DNA of 8,488 nucleotides from a virus. Taxonomy: Duplodnaviria > Heunggongvirae > Uroviricota > Caudoviricetes. The position numbers and the translations under genes are program-made. The DNA lies in IMG/VR virus record IMGVR_UViG_2531839449_000010, positions 1 to 8,488 of that record, one strand, 5' to 3'. Below, in pieces: positions 724-7,787 of this stretch (within the stretch, counting starts at the first letter, position 1; each line of letters starts with the position of its first letter). The notes beneath the pieces were generated by a model. The model was not told the origin of the DNA and searched no databases. It saw only the letters and a list, made by a program, of their open reading frames with translations.

Positions 724-1326
724 TTACCTCTTTCTCAGGGAGTTTAGTCTCCAGGATTTCCGGGGCGGTTCAACCATCTCAATGGATGGTGTTCCGCATT
801 GGTTACCCCAGACATCAAATCCATGCGAGGTGTGACGGGCGAACAGTTCTATCCGGGGAACATCGCCAAGAAGTTGCACAAGTTTTTCTCGCGCCATATC
901 CGGCTTGCGGGAGTGATCAAGGCGCGGTGCAGTGAATGACTGGATTATTCCGGCGTTAATGCGTTCAGGCAGATTTCCTTTCACTGCAAAAAGGCAGTCT
1001 TCGCTGTTAGCGCGAGTGGTGCTACCCATACCCATGACCAGCTTGTCGGTCTGTCTTTTCCCGCATTTGTTCCAGGTTAATCCTTTCATCGTCACCAGAC
1101 GAAAGCCCCACGCTTCTACAACCTTCAATGCTTCAAGTGGTTGTGTAGGCACCCACCACATAGCCAACAGGCAATTATCGGCTGCCAGTTCCCATACCGG
1201 GAGGCGGCAGATATCCAGAAGACTCATGACCGGATATTTAAAACTTGCACCGCGTTGACCATCGGTTGCTTTGTCTCGGAATGTCCAGGGGGGATCTGCG
1301 TAAATGAGAGTGTATTTTTTCGTCAT
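724..1326 (-). CDS. MT-A70-family DNA N6-adenine methyltransferase (phage orphan methylase); 3' end interrupted by the IS, so residues 186-200 are IS-encoded
   Basis: N-terminal motif LIYADPPW (catalytic DPPW). The ATG at 1324..1326 overlaps the stop of the upstream gene (ATGA). The reading frame crosses the IS boundary at 772/773; the tail [15 protein letters not shown] is translated from IS terminal sequence. Confidence 0.8.
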
Positions 1327-1526
1327 AGCGCGTTTTCAAACTCATCAATGTAAAGTGCAACAAGTGCAACGCATCGTCTGAAATCGGCTGCGTCATGTGG
1401 AGCACCGAAGCTATGACCATAGATATTCTTTTTCAGTCCACATGCGATTGAGGCAAGAGTTGCGCTACTGATGCCAACATCGCCAGTCGATTGCCATTTC
1501 AAAACCTTCATAGCCAAATCTGACAT
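1323..1526 (-). CDS. hypothetical small prophage protein (67 aa)
   Basis: ATG at 1524..1526 preceded by GGAGA at a 7-nt spacing. Stop overlaps the methyltransferase start (ATGA), suggesting translational coupling. Confidence 0.55.
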   Translation of the reverse strand: MSDLAMKVLKWQSTGDVGISSATLASIACGLKKNIYGHSFGAPHDAADFRRCVALVALYIDEFENAL

Positions 1527-1539
1527 TTCTTGTCTCCAT

Positions 1540-1563
1540 AAAACAAAACCCGCCGTAGCGAGT
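1540..1563 (-). terminator. candidate intrinsic terminator (distal of a tandem pair)
   Basis: Minus-strand RNA ACUCGC-UACG-GCGGGU forms a 6-bp stem (one G.U) with a tetraloop, followed by UUUGUUUU. Lies between the stop at 1645 and the next start at 1526. Confidence 0.4.
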
Positions 1564-1566
1564 TCA

Positions 1567-1594
1567 GATAAAAGAAATCCCCGCGAGTGCGAGG
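1567..1594 (-). terminator. candidate intrinsic terminator (proximal of a tandem pair)
   Basis: Minus-strand RNA CCUCGC-ACUC-GCGGGG forms a 6-bp stem (one G.U) with a tetraloop, followed by AUUUCUUUUAUC. Same stem design as the hairpin at 1540..1563. Confidence 0.4.
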
Positions 1595-1644
1595 ATTGTT
1601 ATTCATTGCCGATATTCACCTTTATCGCGAACACCTTTACCGGT

Positions 1645-5052: not shown

Positions 5053-5927
5053 GCCACTACCTCTTCGAATTTCAACTCCAATTGGTCACCCCAGATTTCA
5101 CATGATTCGGAACACGAACCAGTATCAAACCGCTTGGCCAGCACCATCGCTTGATACAAATTGCTGTAGTCGCTGTCGGCATACATCCTGGCAATCCCGT
5201 CAAGCGTCAGGTGACCACGGTACATAACGTCTTTACCTGTTCTGCGATGACCATCCCTGACGTGTTTGCCTGTAACCAGTTCATTAAAAACCCGCATCAG
5301 ACCAGGTTCGTCTTTACATGCAAGCCCCAGCTTTTGCGTTGACTTTTTGATGCAGAAAACACAGTTCCCGAGGTGCTCCGGGATTTGCAAATCAAAAGGT
5401 TGTTTTCGCCACCACCGGATAACATCCGACTTATCAAAATCTGACAGTTCGGCAAGATACCGGACGCCCGGTTTCGGTTTCAGCCTACGGGGTTCGTCTG
5501 CACGAATACCCAGCCACGTGATGTAGTTCCCTTGTCCGAAATGGTCATCGCAGTATTTTGTGAAGGGGGTGAGTTTTAATCTGTCAGTGCAGAACGCGCC
5601 GCCGATGTATGGCGTGCCATATTTTTTTACCATGTCCATAAACGGTTTAAGCACCGGCATTCGCGTCTGAATATCCTTTGGTTCCCATTCCGTATAACCA
5701 TTTGGCTGCCCAAGCTCTGGATTTATATCGACCTGCAACACGGTTAGCGGAATATCCCAGAACTTCACAACCTCCCGAATAAACCGGTACGTCAGCGGGT
5801 GTTCACATCCCGTATCCATGAGTATGTAATGAACGTTTTCACCAGCTTTTCTGCGTTGCTCCATAAGGTGGACGAGGTACGCCGATGTCCGACCGCCTGA
5901 AAAACTCACAACATGATGAGTGCTCAT
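5049..5927 (-). CDS. phosphoadenosine-phosphosulfate (PAPS) reductase-like PP-loop ATP-pyrophosphatase family protein (292 aa)
   Basis: N-terminal PP-loop motif VVSFSGGRTSAYL (SGGxxS). C-terminal cysteine pairs (CVFC, CSESC). Complete ORF starting at the ATG at 5925..5927. Confidence 0.8.
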   Translation of the reverse strand: MSTHHVVSFSGGRTSAYLVHLMEQRRKAGENVHYILMDTGCEHPLTYRFIREVVKFWDIPLTVLQVDINPELGQPNGYTEWEPKDIQTRMPVLKPFMDMVKKYGTPYIGGAFCTDRLKLTPFTKYCDDHFGQGNYITWLGIRADEPRRLKPKPGVRYLAELSDFDKSDVIRWWRKQPFDLQIPEHLGNCVFCIKKSTQKLGLACKDEPGLMRVFNELVTGKHVRDGHRRTGKDVMYRGHLTLDGIARMYADSDYSNLYQAMVLAKRFDTGSCSESCEIWGDQLELKFEEVVA

Positions 5928-6034
5928 TTCTTCGTCTCGTTACGGGGAGGGGGTTAAATAGGTGGTAAGCTGGAATTGCCGGATGTTTACCCGTGTCCGG
6001 GGTACGGCCTCACGTTGCAGCGTACGAGAATGGA

Positions 6035-6478
6035 CTATTGCTCAGTGTCGTTTGATGTCGGCTGAGGATATTCGCCTTGCTCTTGTAACAGAGTTAGAAG
6101 AATGGAAAACCCCTCACGATGTGATGATTGATGAGTGTCGATCCCGGAATGATTGATGTTGTTAAATTCCAACATCGTGCTCCTGGCGATAGCCTCAACG
6201 GTATTCCAGAATACTAATACATCTGTTTTCTGCTCTGTTTTATCAGCAACAGGAAGTTTGATATTTTGTTGAAATTTATTAATGCAACCATTTTGAATAT
6301 GTTCCTCGTGCTTTTCATTGTCATAAGCATACAGCCCGACAAAAACATCTCGCACGTTACGGGATATATTTTCCAGATTCGCCTTTGGTTCCTTTGTTAA
6401 ATCAAGCACCGATAAATGGGCTTTAAGCGTATCCGCAGCTATTTTCTGAATATCCTCTGGTAAATCTTTAAATTGCAT
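6035..6478 (-). CDS. hypothetical protein (147 aa), AT-rich moron-like gene
   Basis: ATG at 6476..6478 with GGAGGG at a 7-nt spacing. Hand count gives about 37% GC for 6181..6480, against about 45-50% in neighbouring genes. No family recognised. Confidence 0.55.
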   Translation of the reverse strand: MQFKDLPEDIQKIAADTLKAHLSVLDLTKEPKANLENISRNVRDVFVGLYAYDNEKHEEHIQNGCINKFQQNIKLPVADKTEQKTDVLVFWNTVEAIARSTMLEFNNINHSGIDTHQSSHREGFSILLTLLQEQGEYPQPTSNDTEQ

Positions 6479-6554
6479 AGTATACCCTCCAAGAACTGTG
6501 TATTTTCTCGTGAAATATGAGCGATATGTCGTGACGTCCCTGTCACAGATTTCA

Positions 6555-7376
6555 TCACACTGAGAACGTGCCGATGAAGGTTAAGATATCTTCTTCTTCG
6601 AAACGCTCTTTCAGCAGGTCACGGAACTCTTTGGCAATTTCTTCTTCCGCAGCTTCAACACGCACGATACGTAGCACCAGAACAGGCTGTTCGCTTGTCA
6701 GAATGCTTAATCGCAGCGTGAATTCCCTGTTGCCCAGGCCCTCGTATGGGATGCATTCAAAGCGGAAAGTGGCAGGCATGATTTCTTTGCTTTTAGCCTC
6801 CACGGACTCCATGACTGAGCGGCTACCGCTGAAGTTTTGCTCTTCATATTCAGCACTGCGTTTTGCATCGATGGTAAGACGACGGACAGCAGAGATAGCC
6901 TGTTTGATGTCCAGCACATTACCGTCGCTGTCATAGGCTGTGAGGAAGTCGGCCCAGTCTTCCAGCCATTCAGCGAGAGACTTCTGGAGTTGTTTTTTGC
7001 CGTCAACGTCACGCAATGCGCGATATGGTGATGTGGCTTTCAGTTCCAGCAGTGCCTTGTTGTCAGCGTGTCCAGGTTGCTCCAGAGTGCCGATATTGAA
7101 CACAGTGACTGCTTTCATCGTTTCCGCGTTAATGAAGCAGCGGGAGTGCTCATCGGCATACCCTTTGCTGTATTCAACAAAGTCATCAATACTGGTTGTG
7201 GTCATGACTCCACGGAAACGAAAACGTTCTGTCATGAATCGTTCCAGACTTTCGATATTTACATTGTCCGGCAATAACGCAACAGGGCATTCCGTAAGCG
7301 GCAAATTTTCACCAGAAAAAGCAGTAGTGGTGAGTTTTACAATTTCTTTAATGGCATTGCTATCTAACTGAGACAT
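6555..7376 (-). CDS. DUF2303 / YfdQ-like prophage protein (273 aa)
   Basis: Complete ORF starting MSQLDSNAIKEIVKLTTTAF..., which I tentatively recognise as the YfdQ (CPS-53 prophage) family. That is recall, not a search. Weak AAAGG Shine-Dalgarno upstream. Confidence 0.5.
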   Translation of the reverse strand: MSQLDSNAIKEIVKLTTTAFSGENLPLTECPVALLPDNVNIESLERFMTERFRFRGVMTTTSIDDFVEYSKGYADEHSRCFINAETMKAVTVFNIGTLEQPGHADNKALLELKATSPYRALRDVDGKKQLQKSLAEWLEDWADFLTAYDSDGNVLDIKQAISAVRRLTIDAKRSAEYEEQNFSGSRSVMESVEAKSKEIMPATFRFECIPYEGLGNREFTLRLSILTSEQPVLVLRIVRVEAAEEEIAKEFRDLLKERFEEEDILTFIGTFSV

Positions 7377-7439
7377 GTATATTTACCTTTAATTTATGGA
7401 TTTGGGGATAATGCGCGAGCGTTTTAAGGCGGGGATTAT

Positions 7440-7787
7440 TCAGCGTAAAACAGCGTCATGTTGACCCTGTTTATCGAAAAGCTGTCCCTGGTCTTTCTGG
7501 AACAAAGTAAGCTCACCACCTTTATTTACAAACATCGGGGTGTTAGTTGTGTCTTCTTCTGATTTACTACCACGCATTGTCGGGCGTGTGAATTTTAGTT
7601 TATGGGAAACTGATACGCGATTTTCATCAAGTGAAGATAATTCGAATTCAACACATACCTTTCCTTTTTTGTTTGTGCTGTTTACGCCAAAGGCAACTTC
7701 ACTTAATACCGCGCCAAGTTTGTTAACAAATACCCCGCCGTCGAGGTCGTTAATGAAAACATTAACATCAGTTTGATGCTGGTTCAT
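7440..7787 (-). CDS. hypothetical protein (115 aa), AT-rich; first gene after the right-hand IS
   Basis: ATG at 7785..7787 with GGAG at a 6-nt spacing. Hand count gives about 39% GC for 7501..7800. No family recognised. Confidence 0.55.
   Translation of the reverse strand: MNQHQTDVNVFINDLDGGVFVNKLGAVLSEVAFGVNSTNKKGKVCVEFELSSLDENRVSVSHKLKFTRPTMRGSKSEEDTTNTPMFVNKGGELTLFQKDQGQLFDKQGQHDAVLR

Follow-up and report, generated by a model that had tools for sequence, protein, structure and literature searches.

A closely packed sixteen-gene block between two IS copies, probably the exo-xis accessory region of an Stx-phage-type prophage

The DNA analysed here (hereafter the window) is a stretch of 8,488 nucleotides from a virus of the class Caudoviricetes, IMG/VR record IMGVR_UViG_2531839449_000010, and it carries a block of 16 co-directional genes on the minus strand. 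The window has three parts, a partial insertion sequence (IS) copy at 1..772, phage DNA confined to 773..7887, and another IS copy at 7888..8488. In all likelihood, 773..7887 is the exo-xis accessory block, the dispensable pL-distal part of the early-left operon, of an argW-integrated lambdoid prophage of the Shiga toxin (Stx) phage type, a block that would be transcribed from pL and translated with reinitiation at its tight junctions, and that is bracketed by IS copies in this strain. Its gene content, its position between int/xis and exo/recT, its orientation, its mosaic relation to Stx2a phages and its gene overlaps are direct observations. A first-pass annotation of the same DNA had described fourteen genes at 724..7787 and assigned them to the early-left region of a lambdoid phage. 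We count 16 genes, all with matches to PHROG families and most of these matches end to end; position 724 lies inside an IS element, and phage DNA begins at 773.

The surroundings of the block were read from a sister locus (L003) in the 223-kb contig JHHM01000003.1, which was located by an exact protein match to the chimeric methylase encoded by the open reading frame (ORF) at 724..1326. The window differs from L003 by one base in the phage part, in the A-run 4659..4665, and by one base in an IS copy. The order of genes in L003 is RecT, YqaJ-type exo, an ssb-like gene, IS-A, the 16-gene block, IS-B, DUF1382, DUF1627, a xis-like HTH_17 gene, the integrase and the host csc genes. All phage genes of this locus are co-directional except the integrase, and the 16 block genes lie on the strand of recT and exo, opposite to int. 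Homologues of the block are found in four annotated relatives, three Stx phages and one prophage, with the following arrangements:

Stx2a phage VT2phi_272: homologues between the argW-side integrase and ssb/exo/recT/gam/kil, followed by Rha, restriction-modification, cI-like and cro genes
argW prophage of Escherichia coli E2855: homologues placed as in VT2phi_272
VT2-Sakai: int, xis, orf3-8, ea22-like, TraR-like, orf61, orf63, orf60a, exo, bet, gam, kil, cIII
Stx2 phage 86 (Stx2-86): methyltransferase ... DUF551, 151-aa gene ... Ea22 ... exo

In all four, the homologues occupy the strand of the leftward early operon and none is in the late operon. The early-left placement proposed earlier is therefore upheld by synteny with annotated lambdoid phages, which puts the block between int/xis and exo/recT (bet) and co-directional with the latter. 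Homologous regions within a late or structural operon, which would have overturned this placement, were looked for in the annotated relatives and did not occur. Altogether, 547 phage records match the window, mostly Stx-converting and other Escherichia phages. The block is of a known, ordinary type, and near-identical copies are present in hundreds of Stx and other lambdoid phage records.

The exo-xis region is part of the b region, is dispensable in the laboratory and is transcribed from pL (PMC4195576; dispensability and pL transcription also PMC6213356); it is reported to affect lysogenisation and prophage induction (PMC4195576, PMC3824215). Its name derives from its position and not from orf60a, orf61, orf63 and orf73, though these genes are conserved in many lambdoid phages. 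The block of the window shares with the exo-xis regions of lambda, Phi24B, VT2-Sakai and Stx2-86 the location between int/xis and exo/bet(recT)/gam, the leftward early orientation, an ea22-family gene and many small ORFs. In lambda and Stx phages such regions are described as dispensable, transcribed from pL and furnished with internal predicted terminators (PMC3824215, PMC4195576, PMC7093339). At 7.1 kb the block is much larger than lambda's exo-xis region, where PAPS-reductase-like, YfdQ, YfdP and MT-A70 genes are absent.

The block encodes a YfdP-like protein, a YfdQ/DUF2303 protein, a PAPS-reductase-like (NinC-type) protein, two Ea22-like proteins, a DUF551 and a DUF4222 protein, an MT-A70 methylase and eight short proteins of unknown function. 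Pfam domains were recognised in seven of the genes (MT-A70, DUF4222, DUF551, Ead_Ea22 in two, PAPS_reduct and DUF2303), and the coding share of 724..7787 is 94%. The genes are listed below, with Shine-Dalgarno (SD) pairing energies where they are informative.

724..1326, minus strand: MT-A70 (DPPW) DNA methyltransferase ORF, chimeric; Pfam MT-A70 1-172/172, phrog_359, PADLOC MTase_II
1323..1526, minus strand: 67-aa protein of unknown function; phrog_8038 and phrog_1229, called in both assemblies
1645..1887, minus strand: DUF4222 protein, 80 aa; Pfam DUF4222, phrog_285 (residues 1-80 against profile 1-79/83), gene calls agree
1962..2312, minus strand: DUF551 protein, 116 aa; Pfam DUF551, start and upstream stop joined as ATGA
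2309..2764, minus strand: 151-aa protein of unknown function; phrog_60, phrog_660 and phrog_5117, ATGA overlap at both ends
2761..2970, minus strand: 69-aa protein; phrog_926 1-69/69, gene calls agree, SD -11.0 kcal/mol, 1 nt past the upstream stop
2972..3160, minus strand: 62-aa protein; phrog_1380 1-62/62, gene call in L003, annotation in E2855 and Bas106, SD GGAG with a 7-nt spacer
3157..3312, minus strand: 51-aa very basic protein; phrog_13831 1-58/58, strongest SD of the block, -15.0 kcal/mol
3312..3860, minus strand: Ead/Ea22-like protein, 182 aa; Pfam Ead_Ea22 42.8 bits, GTG start within GTGA, SD AAAGGAGG -11.6 kcal/mol
3857..4621, minus strand: second Ead/Ea22-like protein, 254 aa; Pfam Ead_Ea22 56.6 bits, phrog_368 1-239/239, GTG start at 4621
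4608..4856, minus strand: 82-aa ORF, a frameshifted form of a 79-aa family protein; phrog_1344 1-77 as it stands
4849..5052, minus strand: 67-aa protein; phrog_1226 1-67/67, ATGA overlap upstream and 8-nt overlap ATGTTTAA with the next gene
5049..5927, minus strand: PAPS-reductase-family protein, 292 aa; Pfam PAPS_reduct, phrog_424, first gene of a ten-gene gap-free chain
6035..6478, minus strand: 147-aa protein of unknown function; phrog_1363, SD -9.8 kcal/mol
6555..7376, minus strand: YfdQ/DUF2303 protein, 273 aa; Pfam DUF2303 221 bits, phrog_210
7440..7787, minus strand: YfdP-like protein, 115 aa; phrog_204, PF27127 YfdP on record, transcriptionally the first gene of the block

The Ead/Ea22 content that had been noticed earlier is real, both Ea22-like proteins scoring well above the Pfam Ead_Ea22 cut-off of 27 bits; they resemble each other only over their N-terminal ~76 aa (29% identity). 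Longer forms starting at TTG 1941, GTG 3042, GTG 4969 and GTG 3319 were considered and rejected. Their SDs are weak to none (27th-67th percentile of background), and end-to-end PHROG matches together with independent gene calls favour the shorter forms, namely 1887 over TTG 1941, 2970 over GTG 3042 and 4621 over GTG 4969. Against NCBIfam, no hit exceeded the curated cut-offs.

All eight junction strings quoted in the first-pass annotation are exact on the minus strand: ATGA at 1323..1326, 2309..2312, 2761..2764 and 5049..5052, GTGA at 3857..3860, and the longer overlaps GTGAGTAA at 3312..3319, ATGTTTAA at 4849..4856 and GTGAGCAAAATTGA at 4608..4621. Such an arrangement is far from chance, since in 500 dinucleotide-preserving simulations neither ORF coverage nor the number of 4-nt overlaps reached the observed values. 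Of the coding strand of 773..7887, 87% is taken up by ORFs of 50 aa or more (simulated mean 42%, maximum 64%), and these are joined by five -4 stop/start overlaps (simulated mean 0.35, maximum 3). By increasing coordinate, the 15 junction distances of the block are -4, 118, 74, -4, -4, +1, -4, -1, -4, -14, -8, -4, 107, 76 and 63 nt. Ten of them are at most 1 nt, including six of -4 (seven if the A-run of 4659..4665 is read as A8) and one each of -1, -8 and +1, and ten successive genes follow one another over 1962..5927 without any gap larger than 1 nt. As gene boundaries, six of the eight quoted junctions are supported by gene calls, by the RefSeq annotation of relatives and by end-to-end PHROG matches; those at 3312..3319 and 4608..4621 are not. 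The 8-nt and 4-nt overlaps around the 67-aa gene 4849..5052 are also annotated in VT2phi_272 and E2855.

The density of such junctions had been taken as a sign of the early-left region, which does not hold. With the RefSeq annotation of VT2phi_272 as the baseline, junctions of at most 1 nt make up 10/15 in the window block, 9/25 in the left arm of VT2phi_272, 5/8 in its early-right operon and 8/32 in its late region. The density of the window exceeds that of the late region (Fisher p = 0.01) and, marginally, that of the whole phage (p = 0.04), whereas it is the same as in the early-right operon (p = 1.0), so that overlap density is not diagnostic. The block is placed by its gene content and synteny and not by its overlaps.

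The 8-nt overlap at 3312..3319 results from a wrong start. A usable SD is missing before the GTG at 3319 (-2.8 kcal/mol, 49th percentile), and the 115-aa ORF that it would open was rejected as a gene, its frame in Bas106 (79%-identical DNA) having lost the ATG and containing a stop. For the same stretch, the annotation of Bas106 gives a 60-aa and a 62-aa gene with a 4-nt overlap, and the upstream protein that is conserved with Bas106 (60 aa there) sits in another frame, corresponding to the window ORF 3157..3312. Since the Bas106 frame, the PHROG matches and the SD energies (-15.0 kcal/mol at the 51-aa start and -7.4 at the 62-aa start, against -2.8 at GTG 3319) all favour the 51-aa/62-aa pair, the real junctions here are TAATG at 3310..3314, where the 51-aa ATG overlaps the Ea22 TAA by 1 nt, and a further ATGA at 3157..3160. 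In the reference Stx phages, the arginine/lysine-rich 51-aa gene is unannotated and a 155-aa ORF in another frame (phrog_12350) stands in its place. This ORF is VT2-Sakai orf8 (L005 3762..4229) and Stx2-86 gp46 (L009 3339..3806), and it overlaps ea22 by 128 nt. The alignment to Bas106 points to over-extension of the 155-aa ORF of VT2-Sakai and Stx2-86. A lesser, improbable alternative would be genuine dual coding at 3161..3312 in the Stx-phage lineage, the 51-aa frame and a 62-aa gene extended at its N-terminus both being translated.

The 14-nt overlap at 4608..4621 exists only through a run of seven adenines at 4659..4665, which is the only difference in phage DNA between the window and L003; both L003 and E2855 have eight. 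With A8, the protein has 79 aa and ends at 4618 in an ordinary 4-nt GTGA overlap, and its match to phrog_1344 becomes complete (1-79/79, 178.7 bits after the addition of one base versus 160.6 bits for the ORF as it stands). The A7 run, which shifts the frame of the last ~13 codons of this family protein, stems either from an error of homopolymer sequencing in the draft or from a recent mutation.

The corrected junctions have the features of coupled cistrons, that is, -4 or -1 overlaps or very short spacers, with the SD inside the upstream gene at a typical spacing. The -4/-1 geometry is also kept in divergent phages, namely Bas106 (79% identity) and Stx2-86. An SD within the best 10% of background is present at 11 of the 16 starts and a twelfth stands at 10.1%; at the tight junctions (at most 1 nt), the energy is -7.4 kcal/mol or stronger in eight of ten cases. 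The start of the 151-aa gene at 2764 has an intermediate SD (-6.0 kcal/mol, 13.7th percentile), and the methylase start, which overlaps the upstream stop as ATGA, has none (-2.2 kcal/mol). Moreover, the gene upstream of the methylase is otherwise different in VT2phi_272, yet its last 30 nt show 100% conservation there alongside the methylase. The missing SD and the conserved 30 nt are as would be expected if the methylase were made by termination-reinitiation. From the geometry of the junctions we infer that translation in the block may be coupled: ribosomes that terminate on one cistron would reinitiate on the next, whose start overlaps or abuts the stop, with the aid of SD motifs located within the upstream gene's 3' end. 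In E. coli, -4/-1 overlaps mediate termination-reinitiation (PMC6728339). The pairs studied there and in PMC10666635 have the same -4 (ATGA/GTGA) and -1 (TAATG) geometry with the SD inside the upstream gene, whereas the ten gap-free cistrons of the window form a longer chain than those pairs.

Transcription of the block appears to depend on an upstream promoter. Four sigma-70 promoter-like sites were found in the block, fewer than in shuffled sequences (8.8), and the following element lies within it:

1546..1597, minus strand: two tandem intrinsic-terminator-like hairpins (1597..1576 and 1565..1546), each followed by a U-run, from a terminator scan

These hairpins lie within the 118-nt spacer that separates the DUF4222 gene from the 67-aa gene, and the fold of 1530..1644 has a z-score of -4.07. 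The scarcity of promoter-like sites and the tandem terminators fit a delayed-early unit that relies, as in lambda, on transcription from the upstream pL and on antitermination. After induction, the block would be transcribed leftward from pL by antiterminated RNA polymerase; antitermination would be needed because transcription must pass the terminators at 1546..1597. A 55-nt part of the terminator element (1551..1605) recurs in VT2phi_272 (7479..7533) with 98% identity, between different genes, which suggests that the hairpins may be a portable intergenic terminator module.

Comparison with relatives reveals a mosaic. Segments 772..1356 and 4590..7887 are 100% and 99.2% identical to VT2phi_272, respectively, and 2335..7887 is 98.1% identical to the E2855 prophage, the remainder coming from other modules. 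A 99%-identical core extends across Stx2a phages and comprises YfdP, YfdQ, the 147-aa protein, the PAPS-reductase/SspD-like enzyme and gap-free small genes. The Stx2a phages VT2phi_272, PA2 and PA8 (Oslovirus PA2) and the E2855 argW prophage share with the window the gene order, the strand and the -4 and -8 junctions, and L003 is integrated next to argW/csc, as are VT2phi_272 and E2855. Unlike these relatives, the window has a different mosaic in its middle part (1357..4589), without antirepressor or plus-strand genes, and carries a second Ea22 paralogue and other DUF551/DUF4222 modules. The whole arrangement was not found in one place in any phage record or complete E. coli genome.

The breakpoints of the mosaic relative to these phages (1356, 2335 and 4590) lie within ~30 nt of gene junctions. 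A 63-nt cassette is present at both Ea22-like starts (3829..3891 and 4590..4652, 81% identity) and contains the last part of the upstream gene, the SD AAAGGAGG, the GTG and the first Ea22 codons. Together, the cassette and the breakpoints form the textbook pattern of modules swapped at gene boundaries.

The methylase gene carries the trace of an IS insertion. Its ORF comprises 185 native residues and 15 encoded by the IS, the last 23 of the native 208 being lost; it is identical to the 208-aa methylase of VT2phi_272 for 185 aa and diverges at the IS end. Though not the full-length native protein, it retains a complete MT-A70 domain, with DPPW at residues 11-14. No nuclease family was matched among the ten window proteins scanned against PADLOC or among the proteins scanned against Pfam, and the presence of a solitary (orphan) MT-A70 gene, next to which no restriction endonuclease was matched, is confirmed. 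PADLOC returned no defence system for the window, only its generic type II methyltransferase model and a weak similarity of the PAPS-reductase-like protein's N-terminal portion to SspD, DndC and BrxP. The resemblance of this protein to SspD (E = 9e-15) and DndC, sulfur-transfer enzymes of phosphorothioation systems, spans its N-terminal ~148 aa; the protein bears the label NinC in some Stx phage records, and here its gene sits in the exo-xis region.

Both ends of the window belong to IS copies, with the following features:

1..772, minus strand: partial IS629/IS1203-type element of the IS3 family (IS-B in L003), left inverted repeat (IRL) end at 772, orfA at 392..718, running to the contig end
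321..437, minus strand: ALIL frameshift pseudoknot of IS-B (Rfam RF01497)
7888..8488, plus strand: partial IS629/IS1203-type element (IS-A in L003), IRL end at 7888, running to the contig end
8223..8339, plus strand: ALIL frameshift pseudoknot of IS-A

Rfam gave no match in the phage part of the window, only these IS3 pseudoknots. The two copies pair as a 601-nt inverted repeat (1..772 with 7888..8488), the same end (IRL) of each faces inward, and each carries an orfA transposase gene and an ALIL pseudoknot. They are near-identical, with a single C/T difference at window position 617, and both L003 copies are identical to each other. The window equals the complete draft contig ADUQ01000079.1 (GCA_000188835.2), and its ends fall within IS copies because a repeat interrupted the draft assembly. 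It is therefore a contig left by the assembler between two collapsed IS copies and not a mobile unit.

In L003, IS-B is a 1310-bp element at 10555..11864; its part in the window matches NCBIfam transpos_IS3 and Rfam RF01497. IS-B is inserted within the methylase gene, whose C-terminus it replaces, and it lacks a clean 3-bp duplication, the flanks reading ..GATGGT / IS / CATTCC.. (GGT versus CAT) where the uninterrupted VT2phi_272 reads ..GATGGTTCCGGG.. IS-A is a simple insertion with a 3-bp GGC/GGC target duplication, which lies 23 nt short of where the upstream ssb-like gene stops, and it separates the block from the recombination genes and pL. This ssb-like (DUF669) gene beside exo loses its last 7 residues to the IS and reads on into it (L003 1564..2128, outside the window). 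The block is thus bracketed in this strain by two independent IS629/IS1203 insertions, which were not seen at these sites in any of 5,426 complete E. coli genomes.

Several observations weigh against the interpretation of the block as a pL-transcribed, reinitiation-translated exo-xis region. The conserved lambda genes of such regions are missing from the window: orf60a, orf61 and orf73 (or TraR-like genes), by which lambda and Stx exo-xis regions differ from it, are absent among its Pfam and PHROG hits, and the orf63-like DUF1382 gene lies beyond IS-B in L003, outside the window. Overlap density does not exceed that of a related phage's early-right operon, and most starts have SDs strong enough to support independent initiation. 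Furthermore, an IS stands between pL and the block in this strain, a frameshift affects one gene and another has been cut short; the block may therefore be decaying here, or its expression may be poor. Independent initiation is a serious alternative for the strong-SD cistrons. The overlaps could be a by-product of genome compaction and modular recombination, each cistron initiating at its own SD without coupling, which we regard as possible though rather doubtful. The SD strengths given above, the breakpoints close to gene junctions and the conserved cassette across both Ea22 starts agree with it, as does bioBF, the one of five overlapping E. coli pairs tested that showed de novo initiation (PMC6728339). 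The other four pairs were coupled (PMC6728339), however, the -4/-1 geometry is conserved in Bas106 and Stx2-86, and the methylase has no evident independent route. A silent, decaying prophage remnant, insulated from pL by the upstream IS and accumulating lesions, seems to us somewhat unlikely, and it would be compatible with the identification of the block as an exo-xis region. In its favour are IS-A lying antisense to the operon between the recombination genes and the block, the lesions in the methylase, 79-aa and ssb-like genes, and a promoter scan that gave no internal promoter signal. It is countered by the 14 of 16 genes that are intact, by the complete MT-A70 domain and by the 98-100% identity of the regions common with inducible Stx phages; the sister assembly lacks the frameshift, which may be a homopolymer sequencing error, and antiterminated polymerase may read through an IS.

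The remaining alternatives concern the nature of the block as a whole and, to our judgement, have little in their favour compared with the exo-xis assignment. Near-identical inverted IS copies with the same IRL end inward are what a composite transposon mobilising a 7.1-kb phage-gene cargo would look like, but this origin is very improbable. Outside both copies, the DNA of L003 continues the same prophage colinearly with VT2phi_272; IS-A has its own GGC duplication and the outer flanks share none, so that neither an outer target duplication nor a cargo unrelated to its flanks is seen; neither IS/phage junction was found in the 5,426 complete genomes, and the ends of the window within IS copies reflect only the break of the draft assembly. 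An IS-mediated inversion of the block was likewise ruled out by the colinearity with VT2phi_272 and the IS-A target duplication. An origin from a late or structural operon, or from a non-phage island, can practically be dismissed: nothing was found in its favour, every annotated relative places the homologues between int/xis and exo, and neither Pfam nor PHROG yielded a hit to a structural family. More speculatively, the conserved core with its SspD-like enzyme might be an unrecognised phage DNA-modification or anti-defence module, acting for instance on or against phosphorothioate-type systems. We consider this a long shot; if true, the gap-free chain would set subunit stoichiometry.

The importance of these results hardly goes beyond annotation. 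The corrections concern the gene count of 16, two junctions, the IS-fused methylase, the IS-bounded ends and the internal tandem terminator; correct gene models are of some value because effects of the exo-xis region on the induction of Stx prophages have been reported. As practical by-products, the contig is recognised as an assembly fragment, one overlap as a homopolymer artefact or mutation, and the methylase ORF as an IS fusion. In addition, the gene of a conserved 51-aa basic protein has been missed or mis-called in several reference Stx phage annotations.

Single modules of the block are found in other combinations. The 151-aa and DUF551 genes are separate, ATGA-joined cistrons in the window, and the annotation of Stx2 phage 86 shows the same pair, likewise overlapping by 4 nt. 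E2855 instead has a single 292-aa ORF (L002 8552..9430), in which residues 1-143 of the 151-aa protein precede a different DUF551 domain as one fusion, with the breakpoint at window position 2335. The yfdP and yfdQ genes are presumably also adjacent in the CPS-53 (KpLE1) cryptic prophage of E. coli K-12, as YfdP and YfdQ/DUF2303 are here, the neighbouring genes being different. Finally, the DUF551, 151-, 69-, 62- and 51-aa modules (1900..3340) occur in P1-like phage-plasmids (RCS47 and P1 isolates) with 91-95% identity and are therefore common to lambdoid and P1-type phages.

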